Sequence record: MN882349.1
Reading direction: 5' to 3' (one strand)
DNA: 64,000 nucleotides
Source: Escherichia phage Ec_Makalu_003
The notes beneath the pieces are model-generated. The model was not told the DNA's origin. It made no database searches and was given only the letters and a program-made list of their open reading frames with translations. The translations under genes were made by a program, and so were the position numbers. This document shows positions 23,057 to 27,907 of this stretch, piece by piece (within the stretch, counting starts at the first letter, position 1; every line of letters starts with the position of its first letter).

Positions 23057-23248
23057 TTAGATTCCTGTGATCCTGCATAGAGTTCTTGTATTAGCACCAA
23101 TCAGGATCGCATTAACAGCAACCATTCCCCAATCGACCCACGGATCATTATAAATGCTAAACCCGTTTGCTAGGCCAAATATAAGCATTCCGGTACACAT
23201 ACTCAGAGCAATAATCAACATAACGGTAAAACCAAATGCAAATCTCAT
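23057..23248 (-). CDS. small membrane protein
   Basis: 63 aa; hydrophobic. Confidence 0.4.
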   Translation of the reverse strand: MRFAFGFTVMLIIALSMCTGMLIFGLANGFSIYNDPWVDWGMVAVNAILIGANTRTLCRITGI

Positions 23249-23249
23249 A

Positions 23250-23516
23250 TTATTTTCCTTTTCTCTGTTTACGTTTATAAAAGTAATACATTACCTCATC
23301 TCGTCCGGTGATCCAACATGCTAGGGCGGTAAACAGGTTTACAATTCCCAACACGCCTACGGATGCGGCGCTATCAACAGACATAGGAACAGTAAAGGCC
23401 ATAGCTAACATAGCAACGCCACAAATGACATTAAGCACCATTATAATAAGACCGAAGAAAACCATTGTCAATCCTCCCAAATAAGAAAACCAACAATCAC
23501 GCCAGTGATAAGACAT
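23250..23516 (-). CDS. small membrane protein
   Basis: 88 aa; two hydrophobic helices; basic C-terminus. Confidence 0.45.
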   Translation of the reverse strand: MSYHWRDCWFSYLGGLTMVFFGLIIMVLNVICGVAMLAMAFTVPMSVDSAASVGVLGIVNLFTALACWITGRDEVMYYFYKRKQRKGK

Positions 23517-23659
23517 GATGCGCCGCTAATAAGACAACCCGCGCCAAGTGATTCCCACCAGATCAGAGAAGCGACAATAACGCAAAAACCCCAGACTACC
23601 GCAATCACAACATAGGCAATGGTCGCCCAAAACATATATTTGTTCATAATATATCCCAT
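23468..23659 (-). CDS. small membrane protein
   Basis: 63 aa; hydrophobic; overlaps neighbours. Confidence 0.35.
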   Translation of the reverse strand: MGYIMNKYMFWATIAYVVIAVVWGFCVIVASLIWWESLGAGCLISGASCLITGVIVGFLIWED

Positions 23660-23832
23660 TCACCAAACAAATAAGAAAAAAGCCATATCAACAGAAATGA
23701 GGCGATTGATCCGACAAACAAAATGATATTAGAGAATCCGCCGTCTACCCAGCCAATCAAACAGAATACGCCAGTATAGAAGCACAACCCCAGCACAAAG
23801 CATACTATAATCAACCATAGATAAAACGCCAT
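23644..23832 (-). CDS. small membrane protein
   Basis: 62 aa; hydrophobic. Confidence 0.4.
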   Translation of the reverse strand: MAFYLWLIIVCFVLGLCFYTGVFCLIGWVDGGFSNIILFVGSIASFLLIWLFSYLFGEWDIL

Positions 23833-24056
23833 AGAAATCCCTCCAGTTAGCTAATTTAGTGCGGGTAGTACATTCTCCCCTACCCGCTTTGTCAATCAAC
23901 GCAGAGCGTGTTCTAAAGCGATTCCAAACCATCCGCAAACAACACCCACACAGACAGCGACAAGAAGACTCATTCTCTCTTTAGGGATCATTGCAATCAT
24001 AACAACAACCATACAGAAAGCCATTACCGTTGCAGTTAACATTTGTTCAATCATTA

Positions 24057-24395
24057 TCACACCTTCAAAGTCATAGACGCATAAACATTAATACCTGGCC
24101 AGTTAGGATCGCAATTATACTCAACATCCCACAAATAAAGCGGTTTAGATGTATCAGCCAGGTTTTTAAAATCTTCTACCCACATTTCAAGGCTATATGA
24201 AGGATAAACTAGGCTATCATACCCGCCGTAACGTTGGCCTACTGGTCGGTCAGTAAAGACTACCTCAAGATCCGGCAATTCTTTTTCTAGGATAACAGCC
24301 AGCGCATAAATCAGGCGGTCTTCCTTGTTACGCTGCCGTAGGACCGTTGTTAGTTGGTTCTTCTGGTTCACTAGCAAGTACCTCAACATTTTCAC
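24057..24395 (-). CDS. hypothetical protein
   Basis: 112-aa ORF. Confidence 0.45.
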   Translation of the reverse strand: MKMLRYLLVNQKNQLTTVLRQRNKEDRLIYALAVILEKELPDLEVVFTDRPVGQRYGGYDSLVYPSYSLEMWVEDFKNLADTSKPLYLWDVEYNCDPNWPGINVYASMTLKV

Positions 24396-24648
24396 AGAAT
24401 GAAATTTTCACAGACACAATTTTACCATAAGTGAAGAATGAATATACATTATCGAGATATTCAACGTCACCTACAATCACATCAAACTGCGGATCAGCCA
24501 CTGCCGCAACATATTCTACCAGTTCATCAAGAGAATGCAACTTAATTTCATCAATTCGGCTGTATTTGGTTGCATCTTTAATTTTAAAACCACGTTCTTT
24601 CAGCTTGTCAATCAGAATTTCGCGCGGAGTTTCAAACAGTTTGCTCAT
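24328..24648 (-). CDS. hypothetical protein
   Basis: 106-aa ORF. Confidence 0.45.
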   Translation of the reverse strand: MSKLFETPREILIDKLKERGFKIKDATKYSRIDEIKLHSLDELVEYVAAVADPQFDVIVGDVEYLDNVYSFFTYGKIVSVKISFCENVEVLASEPEEPTNNGPTAA

Positions 24649-24666
24649 AATATAATCCTCACACAG

Positions 24667-24867
24667 TTAATCAGTATAATCAATAATCTTGCACATTATA
24701 ACAGAAAGAACAAAGACCGCAACCCACATATAGATCCCAGCAATCAATGCAATTTCAATATCACAATATCCAAGATATACAACAGGAATAAAAACAAACA
24801 TACAGACCAGCGCAATGAAACTAGCATATACGCTCGAAAATCTGATGGCACTATTATTAATTTTCAT
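24667..24867 (-). CDS. small membrane protein
   Basis: 66 aa; two hydrophobic helices. Confidence 0.45.
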   Translation of the reverse strand: MKINNSAIRFSSVYASFIALVCMFVFIPVVYLGYCDIEIALIAGIYMWVAVFVLSVIMCKIIDYTD

Positions 24868-24868
24868 A

Positions 24869-25051
24869 TTAACAATCCTCGCGGCTTAAGTCAACAGCAA
24901 TTGCATACAGAAGAATGAATATACTAGCAGATCCTAGAATCAATGCACCGTCACATTTTGAAACTCGCTCATCAAAATGCAACATTATCCAACCGAGGAT
25001 GTTAAAGGCGCATATCGCGCCTATGTTATCTAACCAATTAATCTTTTTCAT
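24869..25051 (-). CDS. small membrane protein
   Basis: 60 aa; hydrophobic. Confidence 0.4.
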   Translation of the reverse strand: MKKINWLDNIGAICAFNILGWIMLHFDERVSKCDGALILGSASIFILLYAIAVDLSREDC

Positions 25052-25059
25052 AATATACC

Positions 25060-26350: not shown

Positions 26351-26425
26351 AATTTGATTCTCCGTTTAAGAAAGTGTGTTTCGTTTCGATGGGTGTATTA
26401 TGCTATAGGCCGGATCTGGTGTCAA
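26351..26425 (-). promoter_or_regulatory. early promoter/stem-loop cassette copy N
   Basis: conserved RBS/leader, -35 TGTCAA (rc), GATC in spacer. Confidence 0.55.
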
Positions 26426-26452
26426 CAACTTTTTTAAAAAATTTTAGGCAAT

Positions 26453-26478
26453 AAAAAAGCCACTCCGAAGAGTGGCTT
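26453..26478 (-). terminator. rho-independent terminator
   Basis: AGCCACTC-CGAA-GAGTGGCT hairpin plus U-tract on minus strand. Confidence 0.6.
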
Positions 26479-26625
26479 ATAGGGAAGGTAGCGAATCTTC
26501 CTTGTCTCCAACCTGCTAGCGGCCTAGCAAGTGAATGCTTTAGCGTACCGGATCGCCCATACGCTGCAATAAATGCGGCTAGGTGACGTCCAAATCATTC
26601 TAACCGCGCTGTCTTTAGTTCACTA
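26479..26625 (-). ncRNA. candidate structured non-coding RNA region (not a recognisable tRNA)
   Basis: about 150 nt with no ORF; four consecutive hairpins; lies where T4 carries its tRNA/stable-RNA cluster. Confidence 0.25.
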
Positions 26626-26844
26626 TTATTTATATCGCTTTCTCTCGCGACGTTTTTGATCTTCTTCCTTGATAGAGTTAAATGCATCAAAAAGACACAT
26701 GACACTAATAATAAACATAACCGTATTTTCTACGATATCCCACGGCTTCGCATCAGTACAGATCCCCCAAACGGTAAGAAATGCAAATAAGGCAGAAGAG
26801 ATCACAAGCATGATACTTGCTAAGATATAAAAGGTCATCTTCAT
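26626..26844 (-). CDS. small membrane protein
   Basis: 72 aa; two TM helices; basic C-tail 'KRRERKRYK'. Confidence 0.45.
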   Translation of the reverse strand: MKMTFYILASIMLVISSALFAFLTVWGICTDAKPWDIVENTVMFIISVMCLFDAFNSIKEEDQKRRERKRYK

Positions 26845-27035
26845 GGTTTTACCTCAATTCTTCGATATTCATCACACATCCACGCAGTAAGCAAGAATCC
26901 CAACACATAAGCAACAAAATACGTTAATGCTTCTTCTGGTTCGGTGCTATGCGCCATCATCAGACCAGCGAGAAAGGTCTTAACAATTACATTTAAAATA
27001 ATTAGCCACGCAAATAATTTCATCGTTTGCCCCAT
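26841..27035 (-). CDS. small membrane protein
   Basis: 64 aa; hydrophobic. Confidence 0.45.
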   Translation of the reverse strand: MGQTMKLFAWLIILNVIVKTFLAGLMMAHSTEPEEALTYFVAYVLGFLLTAWMCDEYRRIEVKP

Positions 27036-27259
27036 TTCGGTCGAGTCTTCTCAAACTTATACATTCCGTAACAATCTCGAATCATCCACGTAACAAGAGC
27101 ACCAGTCAACACAGACAATACACAGAAGAAGTAAAACGGTCCGGTTGCATTATCAACATGAGCAAGCCATGTAAAGAATACACATGCTAAGAATGTAAAG
27201 AACATCATAAAACACAAGAAAGCAAAATATTTTATGCTACTCATATCGCCACCATACAA
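27020..27259 (-). CDS. small membrane protein
   Basis: 79 aa; hydrophobic. Confidence 0.45.
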   Translation of the reverse strand: MYGGDMSSIKYFAFLCFMMFFTFLACVFFTWLAHVDNATGPFYFFCVLSVLTGALVTWMIRDCYGMYKFEKTRPKWGKR

Positions 27260-27347
27260 CAGATCATAAGAAACCCCAACGCAATAAGAATTGCATCAAA
27301 TTTAGTGAACTCCGGTCCACCTATCAACATCATTCGTTCCTGTTCAG

Positions 27348-27545
27348 TCATAGATCACAGATCCATCTAAAAGCACCACATACAGCGATCAGGAGTGTAG
27401 GAACACTTGAGAAGAAAACCAATGTACAAAAATCATCTAGTGTAATACCGGAATAACTACCTACTGCAATCACACCGATGATCAGACACAGAAAGAAAAC
27501 AAATGCAATCAGAAACAAAGTATTGCTAAACAGTTTAGTGATCAT
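27348..27545 (-). CDS. small membrane protein
   Basis: 65 aa; hydrophobic. Confidence 0.45.
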   Translation of the reverse strand: MITKLFSNTLFLIAFVFFLCLIIGVIAVGSYSGITLDDFCTLVFFSSVPTLLIAVCGAFRWICDL

Positions 27546-27739
27546 TAGACACCCCCACGACGGTCAATTTCAAAAACTTTCTTATCACAGACAAAGCAGG
27601 TCACTACAGCCTCATTGACTTCCGCAAATTGTTGTGTTACCCACTTAAGGTCAGAGCTAAACAATGTTTTGTTAATAACAAATGTTTTACCTTTCTTATC
27701 TTTACCCATAAATTTTGCGTTAACCATATCCAATTCCAT
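27545..27739 (-). CDS. hypothetical protein
   Basis: 64-aa ORF. Confidence 0.4.
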   Translation of the reverse strand: MELDMVNAKFMGKDKKGKTFVINKTLFSSDLKWVTQQFAEVNEAVVTCFVCDKKVFEIDRRGGV

Positions 27740-27748
27740 ATTATCACC

Positions 27749-27907
27749 TTATTTGCTAATCGCTAAACCTAATCCGAAGAGAGCACCAGACGCTACAGTA
27801 TACCCGAAAGTTTCAAAGGCAGTAAAGATATCCAACCCACCAGCTAACAGAGTTGCAGTAAACAGAGTACCAGCTACGAACATAAAAGTTTTACCGATAA
27901 ATTTCAT
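27749..27907 (-). CDS. small hydrophobic peptide (52 aa), absent from the ORF track
   Basis: Hand-translated as MKFIGKTFMFVAGTLFTATLLAGGLDIFTAFETFGYTVASGALFGLGLAISK; ATG follows the cassette RBS. Confidence 0.4.
   Translation of the reverse strand: MKFIGKTFMFVAGTLFTATLLAGGLDIFTAFETFGYTVASGALFGLGLAISK

Follow-up and report, generated by a model that had tools for sequence, protein, structure and literature searches.

A cluster of thirteen genes for very small predicted membrane proteins between gene 57B and the endolysin gene of a Krischvirus

The 57B–endolysin interval and its membrane genes

Through in silico analysis of a 64,000-nucleotide stretch of Escherichia phage Ec_Makalu_003 (MN882349.1; hereafter the window, meaning the whole stretch), thirteen genes for very small predicted membrane proteins, named M1 to M13, have been identified between gene 57B and the endolysin gene. 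The source genome is a Krischvirus, i.e. an RB49-like, T4-type coliphage: megablast of positions 23000-28000 returned 58 phage records, all Krischvirus, of which Ec_Makalu_001 was the closest (98.7%). Every gene from about 1 to 31.6 kb of the window lies on the minus strand; read along transcription, gene 1 (deoxynucleoside monophosphate kinase) comes first, followed by 57A, 57B, 22 small genes, the endolysin gene, vs.8 and a GrcA-like gene. The 22 small genes comprise the thirteen membrane genes and nine soluble ones (S1-S8 and dmd). T4 shares the frame 1-57A-57B ... e ... vs.8; its interval holds ipI, tRNA genes and e.2-e.8, and ipII and ipIII stand just past e, outside the 57B-e interval. 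The array thus falls within a known hyperplastic interval of T4-like genomes and is the 57B-to-endolysin hyperplastic region of a Krischvirus.

An earlier reading of the sequence alone (the original prediction) had described this interval as an array of about ten hydrophobic micro-proteins of 50-90 residues. All five stretches that it named hold real small hydrophobic open reading frames (ORFs) on the minus strand; the ORF that it had found by hand at 27749-27907 is M13, and its probable 52-residue ORF at about 23896-24050 is M5, here refined to 23896-24054. The array is therefore real and the helices are borne out by hydropathy and by AlphaFold2 hairpins for M2 and M13, but there are thirteen such genes, their products measure 36-74 residues, and nine small soluble genes, including dmd, are interleaved with them. 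Gene limits were set by conserved starts, PHROG profile lengths and public annotation. The coding comparisons covered 16 Krischvirus genomes, to which the fractions below refer, and three more divergent metagenome relatives (L099, L100 and L102) reached via M13 homologues. In the list, TM stands for transmembrane helix, dN and dS for nonsynonymous and synonymous divergence, and SD for Shine-Dalgarno.

23057..23248, minus strand: M1, 63 residues; hairpin with TM at about 3-27, loop NGFSIYNDPW, a weak TM at about 41-55 and a basic C-terminal end; phrog_15016 (5.6e-43); intact in 16/16; dN/dS 0.24; 89% amino acid identity in L099.
23250..23465, minus strand: M2, 71 residues; hairpin with a basic C-tail (+7/-2), the most holin-like shape of the set; phrog_15232 (5e-52); intact in 16/16; dN/dS 0.09.
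23468..23647, minus strand: M3, 59 residues; hairpin; phrog_16151; intact in 16/16; dN/dS 0.27; its ATG overlaps the M4 stop (ATGA).
23644..23832, minus strand: M4, 62 residues; hairpin; grand average of hydropathy 1.75; phrog_19354; intact in 14/16; dN/dS 0.49.
23896..24054, minus strand: M5, 52 residues; hairpin with a short basic loop (PKER); phrog_16035; intact in 16/16; dN/dS 0.24.
24667..24867, minus strand: M6, 66 residues; hairpin; phrog_15379; polymorphic cassette, found in 7/16, length unchanged in 3.
24869..25051, minus strand: M7, 60 residues; one strong and one weak TM; phrog_16425; intact in 16/16; dN/dS 0.38.
26626..26844, minus strand: M8, 72 residues; hairpin with a basic C-tail (+8/-4); last gene of the putative dmd operon; phrog_15168; intact in 16/16; dN/dS 0.05; a 67%-identical allele in L099 (dS 1.1).
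26841..27023, minus strand: M9, 60 residues; hairpin with an acidic loop (HSTEPEE); phrog_15717 (profile of 60 residues); intact in 16/16; dN/dS 0.25; ATGA overlaps at both ends.
27020..27244, minus strand: M10, 74 residues; Phe-rich hairpin with a basic C-tail (+7/-2); phrog_15290; dN/dS 0.06.
27241..27351, minus strand: M11, 36 residues; single C-terminal TM; phrog_15282; intact in 15/16; dN/dS 0.36.
27348..27545, minus strand: M12, 65 residues; hairpin; phrog_17225; intact in 16/16; dN/dS 0.57; its start overlaps the dmd stop by 1 nucleotide (nt).
27749..27907, minus strand: M13, 52 residues; Gly/Ala/Thr-rich hairpin; first gene after promoter P27967 (below); phrog_16462; intact in 16/16; dN/dS 0.09.

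According to hydropathy, twelve of the products are predicted two-helix hairpins and one (M11) spans the membrane once. The hairpin loops are mostly short and acidic, with a length of 2-12 residues, and the tails do not exceed 19 residues; basic C-tails of 14-19 residues are present in M2, M8 and M10 and absent from the other ten. The AlphaFold2 models place helices at residues 2-25 and 30-69 of M2 (predicted local distance difference test, pLDDT, 79.6) and at 3-22 and 27-50 of M13 (pLDDT 69.7). Polar residues are conserved within the helices, e.g. N12 in M2 and N11/K15 in M9. Each of the thirteen hits a small PHROG of its own, without known function, at E-values from 1e-27 to 1e-54.

Coding evidence

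M1-M13 are genuine protein-coding genes for very small predicted membrane proteins. All thirteen start with ATG preceded by an SD-like motif 4-10 nt upstream, and they are tightly joined: ATGA overlaps link M12/M11/M10/M9/M8 and M4/M3, dmd and M12 overlap by 1 nt, and the other gaps measure 1-8 nt, apart from that before M4, which begins 63 nt after M5. Except for the polymorphic M6, the genes are intact in 14-16 of the 16 Krischvirus genomes. Pairwise dN/dS in frame ranges from 0.05 to 0.57 and, with few exceptions, is clearly higher in the two shifted frames; four genes have values of at most 0.1, and M4, M6 and M12 reach 0.49-0.57. In the three divergent relatives all thirteen are intact, at 65-99% amino acid identity and dN/dS 0.06-0.6. 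Within the TM helices, 144 of the 156 variable columns remain uncharged.

The members differ in how strongly they are held. M10 is the most conserved, with 99% amino acid identity in the divergent relatives and one variable column among 46 TM columns. M5 falls to 65-67% amino acid identity in L099, L100 and L102 with its reading frame still intact. M12 exists in two allele classes of about 98% and about 85% nucleotide identity, and Whisky and the IMG/VR contig L003 each have a 1-nt indel in M4. For M11, the longer start used in RB49 is not conserved, L099 having a stop there.

Two other interpretations of the reading frames have been rejected. The ORF at 23729-23932 (minus strand), annotated as coding sequence EcMakalu001_105 in Ec_Makalu_001, is intact in 2/16 genomes, has a dN/dS of 1.28, lacks a PHROG match and is interrupted by a stop in L099/L102; what is coded there is M4, in another frame. 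The idea that a polytopic membrane gene has decayed into these chains also fails: selection is purifying on every piece, none of them resembles a transporter family, and the overlaps and frames have been conserved.

Density of the cluster

The high density of these genes is real and Krischvirus-specific. With a small membrane ORF defined by a hydrophobic 19-residue window, and the minus strand from 1 to 31.6 kb as scope, 13 of the 18 small ORFs inside 23.04-27.92 kb are hydrophobic, against 2 of the 25 outside (Fisher p=1.7e-5); only two more credible cases come from the other ~100 kb of an RB49 genome. For comparison with other phages, 58 viral loci with a 57B/Acb1 homologue were collected, 49 of them non-Krischvirus. 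In the 8 kb downstream of 57B/Acb1 these 49 hold 0-3 small membrane ORFs, against 13 in Krischvirus.

The corresponding T4 interval has four membrane ORFs, trna.4, e.2, e.3 and e.4, all uncharacterised. The product of trna.4, a 61-residue two-TM hairpin next to ipI/57B, resembles the M hairpins. However, the T4 and Krischvirus genes are not homologous (tblastn gave nothing at E<0.1), and three of the four T4 proteins exceed 100 residues, whereas Krischvirus has 13-14 micro-proteins.

Relationships and distribution

By the searches made, the thirteen proteins fall into mutually unrelated, genus-restricted families. All-versus-all blastp and hhalign with reversed-sequence controls detected no paralogy among the thirteen, except between M6 and RB49p110 (32% identity, hhalign probability 97%), which are allelic cassettes; all other hhalign pairs gave probabilities of at most 14%, the level of the reversed controls. 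The array therefore lacks the similarity among members expected of a tandem paralogous family.

Outside the array, when the M proteins were concatenated and run by tblastn against 50,697 phage records, matches were confined to the 58 Krischvirus records. No relatives were detected among 72,556 plasmids (tblastn) or in 5,426 E. coli genomes (blastn). M13, M10 and M2 were searched against 5.8e9 proteins and nothing was found beyond Krischvirus-like phages; M13 gave three clusters, all Krischvirus-like, and the matches of M10 were all near-identical. A HMMER profile of the M2 family retrieved its own family only from 1.84e9 representative proteins, and a Foldseek comparison of the M2 model with viral structures returned nothing outside Krischvirus-like phages.

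The expectation that such proteins go unannotated did not hold for this array. RB49 lists the ORFs as 'hypothetical protein' (RB49p103-124) and W115 labels eleven of them 'putative membrane protein'. In the literature searched, nothing was found on these proteins or on a Krischvirus transcriptome or proteome; the sequences are already public, and the cluster itself, its density and its linkage to Acb1 and Dmd are absent from that literature.

Neighbouring genes and transcription units

The soluble genes of the interval and its upstream border are as follows.

28465..28935, minus strand: 57B, Acb1 (phosphodiesterase directed against the cyclic oligonucleotide-based antiphage signalling system, CBASS); Pfam PF23474 Acb1 1.5e-51; 47% identity to T4 57B; upstream border of the array.
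27545..27739, minus strand: dmd; Pfam Dmd 5.7e-13; phrog_2102; 43% identity to T4 Dmd; embedded in the array.
26165-26350, minus strand: S7, soluble, DUF7421 (3.8e-40).
25466-25654, minus strand: S4, soluble, 55.3/DUF5490 family.
25060..25386, minus strand: S3, soluble, 108 residues, LPD25 domain (Pfam LPD25 3e-14); first gene of the putative lower operon.

No informative match was obtained for S1, S2, S5, S6 or S8. As for 57B, most public records label it 'RNA ligase' or 'hypothetical', despite the Pfam Acb1 match of 1.5e-51.

Five minus-strand promoters of the sigma-70 type, with -35 boxes starting at 28420, 27967, 26425, 26156 and 25457, share extended flanks and G/C stem-loops and follow the pattern TTGACA-17-(C/T)A(T/A)(A/G)AT. 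Across 18 relatives the hexamers are invariant and the spacers variable, as noted at 26128-26156, 27939-27967 and 25429-25457, and the GEC-3S annotation marks these elements as promoters. All five combine an AT-rich upstream tract, a sigma-70-type early promoter, an adjacent G/C stem-loop and a location in a hyperplastic region, which are the features of the PeSL, an early promoter plus stem-loop described for RB49/phi1 (PMC2839356). For three other PeSLs promoter and terminator activity has been shown experimentally, the sole wild-type clone recovered giving high lacZ expression, and PeSL elements have been proposed to mediate ORFan shuffling (PMC2839356).

27939..27967, minus strand: early sigma-70/PeSL-type promoter P27967, TTGACA-17-TAAGAT; stem-loop overlapping the -10 box; conserved in 18 relatives.
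26457..26478, minus strand: intrinsic terminator, 9-bp stem followed by a T-run; predicted end of the dmd/M8 operon, doubling as stem-loop of the next PeSL.
26397-26425 and 26128-26156, minus strand: two more putative PeSL early promoters, which would serve the soluble genes S7 and S6-S4.
25429..25457, minus strand: putative early PeSL promoter P25457, TTGACA-17-CATAAT, 11/12 matches.

The terminator at 26457..26478 is annotated in Makalu_001, GEC-3S and G2248 and conserved in relatives; a second strong one lies at 28458-28437 (minus strand), and downstream of P25457 no strong terminator was found before 22.6 kb. The M genes are thus arranged, as judged from these signals, in two compact chains, partly coupled in translation, which stand behind conserved promoters of the early type. 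The upper unit would run from P27967 through M13-dmd-M12-M11-M10-M9-M8 to the terminator, and the lower one from P25457 through S3-M7-M6-S2-S1-M5-M4-M3-M2-M1 into the endolysin. We infer that the M proteins are early products, made within the first minutes after infection.

An exact late-promoter consensus, TATAAATA, also occurs at 26627-26634 (minus strand), over the M8 stop codon and about 150 nt upstream of the terminator; it may be functional or a by-product of ...RYK* codons.

Conflict genes and allele evolution

The array is co-located with established counter-defence genes and, as predicted, co-transcribed with one of them. The dmd gene lies inside the M13-M8 operon, Acb1 is encoded about 560 nt upstream of M13, from which S8 separates it, and the LPD25 gene heads the lower operon. 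Dmd is an antitoxin against the RnlA/LsoA toxins. In such sharing of operons and borders with Acb1 and Dmd the M genes resemble known anti-defence islands; to our knowledge, the characterised anti-defence proteins of these islands are all soluble. In T4, IpI and IpII inhibit GmrSD-type restriction (bioRxiv 10.1101/2023.04.06.535777).

The M alleles are mosaic. For M1-M5 and M7-M9 dS is 0.27-1.1 and dN 0.05-0.22, as compared with dS 0.14-0.2 and dN of at most 0.012 in the interleaved soluble genes S1-S3, S7 and S8, and the allele classes of neighbouring genes assort independently. The M6 cassette is carried by the window, Makalu_001, JSE, MIZ4, phiS, Whisky and SSG23. RB49, Phi1, GEC-3S and others have RB49p110 in its place together with an extra hairpin gene, RB49p111; L099, L100 and L102 have M6 plus an RB49p111-like gene. 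The polymorphism is located at 24667-24867 of the window and at 2269-2663 of L083. S5/S6 are likewise swapped between genomes. These exchanges of M6/RB49p110/p111 and S5/S6 resemble the shuffling of PeSL-flanked ORFan cassettes in RB49/phi1, i.e. in the same phage group and with the same PeSL anatomy (Arbiol et al. 2010, PMC2839356). That study makes no mention of membrane proteins or of the M cluster, and most M genes differ from its cassettes in standing in long coupled chains, not as single PeSL-flanked units.

The T4 proteins Imm, Sp, RI, 61.x, trna.4 and e.2-e.8 were also compared with a near-complete Krischvirus genome, and only dmd, 57B, rI.-1, 61.1, gp40 and the gp5 lysozyme domain were matched. 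With tblastn this genome yielded no homologue of Imm or Sp, and the RB49 annotation lists none either. No M protein matched PADLOC (defence-system proteins) or known anti-defence proteins.

Proposed role in exclusion and counter-defence

The array is classed here as phage accessory small membrane proteins. That its products are real, early, inner-membrane accessory proteins and not the lysis system is probable. The M proteins would insert into the host inner membrane early in infection and act there by helix-helix contacts or oligomerisation within the bilayer. Since nearly all of their predicted mass lies within the bilayer, with only short loops and tails, they could not be enzymes, which points to intramembrane binding. 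Each hairpin would bind and block a different membrane-inserting or membrane-embedded protein. Two classes of targets are proposed; (i) the genome-delivery pore (tape-measure protein) of superinfecting phages, as for T4 Imm and HK97 gp15; (ii) membrane-bound abortive-infection effectors of the host. The cluster would accordingly be an accessory battery for competition and counter-defence, outside the lysis machinery.

In T4, the early membrane protein Imm (9 kDa) prevents genome entry by binding the tape-measure protein gp29, and the same block has been proposed for HK97 gp15 (bioRxiv 10.64898/2026.03.06.709160). The M proteins, as predicted, are likewise small, early, helical inner-membrane proteins, non-essential and encoded in an accessory region; in size, predicted location and presumed timing they fit an entry blocker of the Imm type. 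However, none matches Imm (PF14373) in Pfam at E<=1, the best blastp alignment (M12, E=0.08) covers 20 hydrophobic residues, and T4 Imm is a single gene between 42 and 43, whereas here thirteen unrelated genes stand at another locus. By this analogy, Imm-like action is favoured as a working model for at least some M proteins.

Support for superinfection exclusion and defence inhibition is circumstantial: it comes from the neighbouring Acb1, Dmd and LPD25 genes, from the early expression, from the mosaic alleles and from the missing Imm/Sp homologues. A specific exclusion or anti-defence mechanism is accordingly put forward as tentative, at clearly less than an even chance, and the combined statement, accessory inner-membrane proteins with an exclusion or anti-defence function, stands just short of an even chance. 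More speculative, and unlikely as it stands, is the idea of a multi-specific in-membrane immunity battery in which each hairpin would neutralise a different membrane-inserting weapon. Candidate targets would be tape-measure/ejection pores of competing phages, pore-forming colicins and the transmembrane effectors of abortive infection, such as two-TM effectors of CBASS, Pycsar or retrons and RexB-like channels; such a battery would explain why the M genes stand in operons with Dmd and beside Acb1.

Several points weigh against an exclusion or anti-defence role. None of the M proteins scores above threshold against Imm, the Sie families, PADLOC, Pfam or NCBIfam, and no published case was found in which a transmembrane protein of a phage neutralises a defence effector of the membrane. 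Guilt by association is a weak argument in a hyperplastic region that gathers all kinds of ORFans, and the early timing rests on promoter signals. The tight coupling and near-universal retention of the thirteen genes fit a multi-subunit complex at least as well. M10, M8, M2 and M13 are very conserved within the genus, which fits a constant target, a host housekeeping protein or one of the phage's own, better than an arms race. A check for covariation of the M alleles with gp29 found gp29 to vary continuously, at 95-100%, save for four very divergent genomes, and was uninformative.

These four genomes, MZ504878 (Whisky), MK962753 (JK32), OR352938 (AV108) and PQ306574 (PTE-Eco09), carry a very divergent tape-measure gene 29, which can be aligned only over its first 27% (~81%); identity to RB49 is 94-100% in the other 54 records.

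Alternative explanations

The M proteins might instead modulate housekeeping machines of the host inner membrane (transporters, respiratory chain, FtsH, Sec/YidC, divisome), tuning metabolism or shutting off host functions and not fighting defences or competitors. AcrZ, MgtS, SgrT and CydX are bacterial proteins of similar size and shape that act as such modulators. Early expression would suit host take-over, and the very high conservation of M10, M8, M2 and M13 would suit invariant host targets. We nevertheless consider this explanation improbable, if still one to reckon with, because other T4-like coliphages of the same host carry 0-3 such genes here and no homologues, so that the functions are not generally needed for the take-over of E. 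coli. The mosaic, fast-evolving M3-M7 and M12 and the neighbours Acb1, Dmd and LPD25 point moreover to conflict functions.

Rather less probable is that the products are subunits of one or two hetero-oligomeric membrane assemblies (a channel, scaffold or anchoring platform), formed by the M12-M8 chain (nine helices) and the M5-M1 chain (ten helices). The ATGA-type coupling of M12-M11-M10-M9-M8 and M4-M3, with gaps as small as 1-2 nt elsewhere, is typical of stoichiometric complexes; twelve of the thirteen genes are kept in every genome examined, M6 being swapped for RB49p110, and polar residues conserved within helices (N12 of M2, N11/K15 of M9) would also fit. Against this, single members have been exchanged, frameshifted or duplicated while their neighbours stayed in place (the M6/RB49p110/p111 cassette; M4 in two genomes), neighbouring allele classes assort independently, which is unexpected for co-adapted subunits, and there is no similarity to a known multi-subunit membrane complex.

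According to a third explanation the genes are evolutionary by-products, the PeSL region, highly transcribed and prone to recombination, serving as a nursery in which T-rich sequence gives rise to young hydrophobic hairpin ORFs of little or no fitness value. In yeast, membrane ORFs are documented to have arisen de novo from T-rich sequence. All M genes are genus-restricted ORFans with no relatives among 5.8e9 proteins; they are short and T-rich/hydrophobic, with an AT skew of +0.09 on the opposite strand at 22-24 kb; constraint is relaxed in some (dN/dS 0.49-0.57 in M4, M6 and M12), and some are lost or swapped. Yet purifying selection acts on all thirteen, four of them with dN/dS of at most 0.1, starts, SD sites and overlaps are conserved, and the genes persist undisrupted down to 65% amino acid identity. 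Being ORFans moreover does not set the hydrophobic ORFs apart, since the soluble ones interleaved with them are just as genus-restricted. We regard an origin as mere by-products as quite doubtful.

Relation to lysis

The original prediction had also named holin/antiholin-like factors among the candidates, beside superinfection exclusion proteins and inhibitors of membrane-bound host defences. Of these roles the first has proved the least supported. The proposal would be that M1 and M2, perhaps with others, are holins, pinholins or antiholins acting with the adjacent endolysin. M1 and M2 lie directly upstream of the endolysin gene, and M2, M8 and M10 have the classic holin shape (small size of about 70 residues, two TM helices and a strongly basic, hydrophilic C-tail), as in the class II holins and pinholins (lambdoid S21). 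M2 (E 0.03 and 0.4) and M10 (0.09) give sub-threshold matches to holin superfamily III, and M13 and the second helix of M1 are Gly/Ala-rich, like signal-arrest-release domains.

The profile evidence does not hold up under comparison. M2 reaches 14.8 bits with Phage_holin_3_5 (cut-off 27) and M10 13.3 bits with Phage_holin_3_6 (cut-off 28.4); the holin matches as a whole, at 11-15 bits against cut-offs of 27-28, stand beside equally weak matches to unrelated membrane families. No M protein matched the NCBIfam holin models, and the full profile search with M2 gave nothing outside its own family.

The genus also possesses a complete T4-type set of lysis proteins other than the endolysin. RB49 encodes a T4-type T holin (RB49p254) and the pseT.2/pseT.3 spanins, so the M proteins would not be needed to supply the hole-forming function. 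An RI antiholin is present in the window; its gene, adjoining the rI.-1/DUF5856 homologue (15922-16320, minus strand), was found by reading the ORFs there and confirmed with Pfam; the RB49 annotation over 1-36 kb and 92-164 kb names no rI gene.

16307-16609, minus strand: RI antiholin, 100 residues; Pfam PF24205 1.9e-23; 25% identity to T4 RI, both cysteines aligned.
22639..23028, minus strand: endolysin of the M15 L-Ala-D-Glu peptidase type; Pfam Peptidase_M15_4 4.4e-12; downstream border of the array.
23026..23066, minus strand: endolysin leader; late-promoter-like TCTAAATA and a hairpin (TCACTC/GGGTGA) over the SD site.

RI proteins combine an N-terminal signal-anchor with a periplasmic domain of ~70 residues; none of the M proteins matches the RI model PF24205 and none has a periplasmic domain. 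The endolysin takes the position of T4 lysozyme e, and its within-genus dS is high (0.65 versus L099).

Co-transfer with the endolysin was examined in 80 viral contigs with related M15 endolysins. Endolysins of this type, 52-67% identical, occur in 79 unrelated viral contigs, and 0/79 carry an M gene; the single Krischvirus contig did. A mobile lysis cassette made of the M genes and the endolysin is rejected on this ground.

The leader argues in the same direction. Its box TCTAAATA is one mismatch from the T4 late promoter TATAAATA. The 40 nt before the endolysin ATG are 100% identical in 15 of 18 relatives though the flanking genes vary, and the box and hairpin are invariant in 17 of 18, L003 having a 1-nt insertion in the G-run. 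We take this arrangement to resemble the early/late control of T4 gene e; by analogy, it suggests that late transcripts would be translated into endolysin, whereas early ones reading through the gene would not. As the late-promoter-like box sits after M1, late endolysin transcripts would leave out the M genes. The M genes therefore do not look like a late lysis cassette, their upstream promoters being, by prediction, of the early sigma-70/PeSL type only, and a holin made early would kill the infection. With the T holin, RI and the spanins encoded elsewhere, no linkage to the endolysin in 79 contigs and the leader just described, a holin or antiholin function of the M proteins is unlikely, and joint action of M1/M2 with the adjacent endolysin in particular is very improbable.

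That the M genes are no genes at all, but chance ORFs in a T-rich stretch, is effectively refuted by the comparative data: they are short and compositionally biased, and the annotated ORF 23729-23932 is indeed spurious, but selection is purifying and frame-specific, starts, stops and SD sites are conserved, the frames are intact across 19 genomes, and their density is far above that of the rest of the genome.

Significance

More than half of the genes of one early region are M genes, concentrated in 3% of the genome, and among the other T4-like groups examined none carries such a cluster. Small hydrophobic phage ORFs are usually ignored; here thirteen are under selection beside two proven counter-defence genes. 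If some of the products do block phage genomes or membrane effectors, they would constitute a compact, genetically tractable set of intramembrane inhibitors in phages that grow on E. coli K-12, and the search for anti-defence genes would extend to a class missed by homology- and structure-based screens. Any that target host effectors would be the first counter-defence proteins of phages known to work within the lipid bilayer. Should the M proteins turn out to be host modulators or complex subunits instead, they would still belong to a part of early phage biology that is uncharted. In therapy cocktails, where Krischvirus phages are in use, interference between members is affected by exclusion genes.

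Another membrane protein in the window

Among the few other small membrane proteins of the window is the 97-residue product of 17274-17567 (minus strand), with two terminal TM helices around a soluble domain of ~45 residues, which gives a weak sub-threshold match to an accessory family of phosphotransferase system (PTS) transporters.

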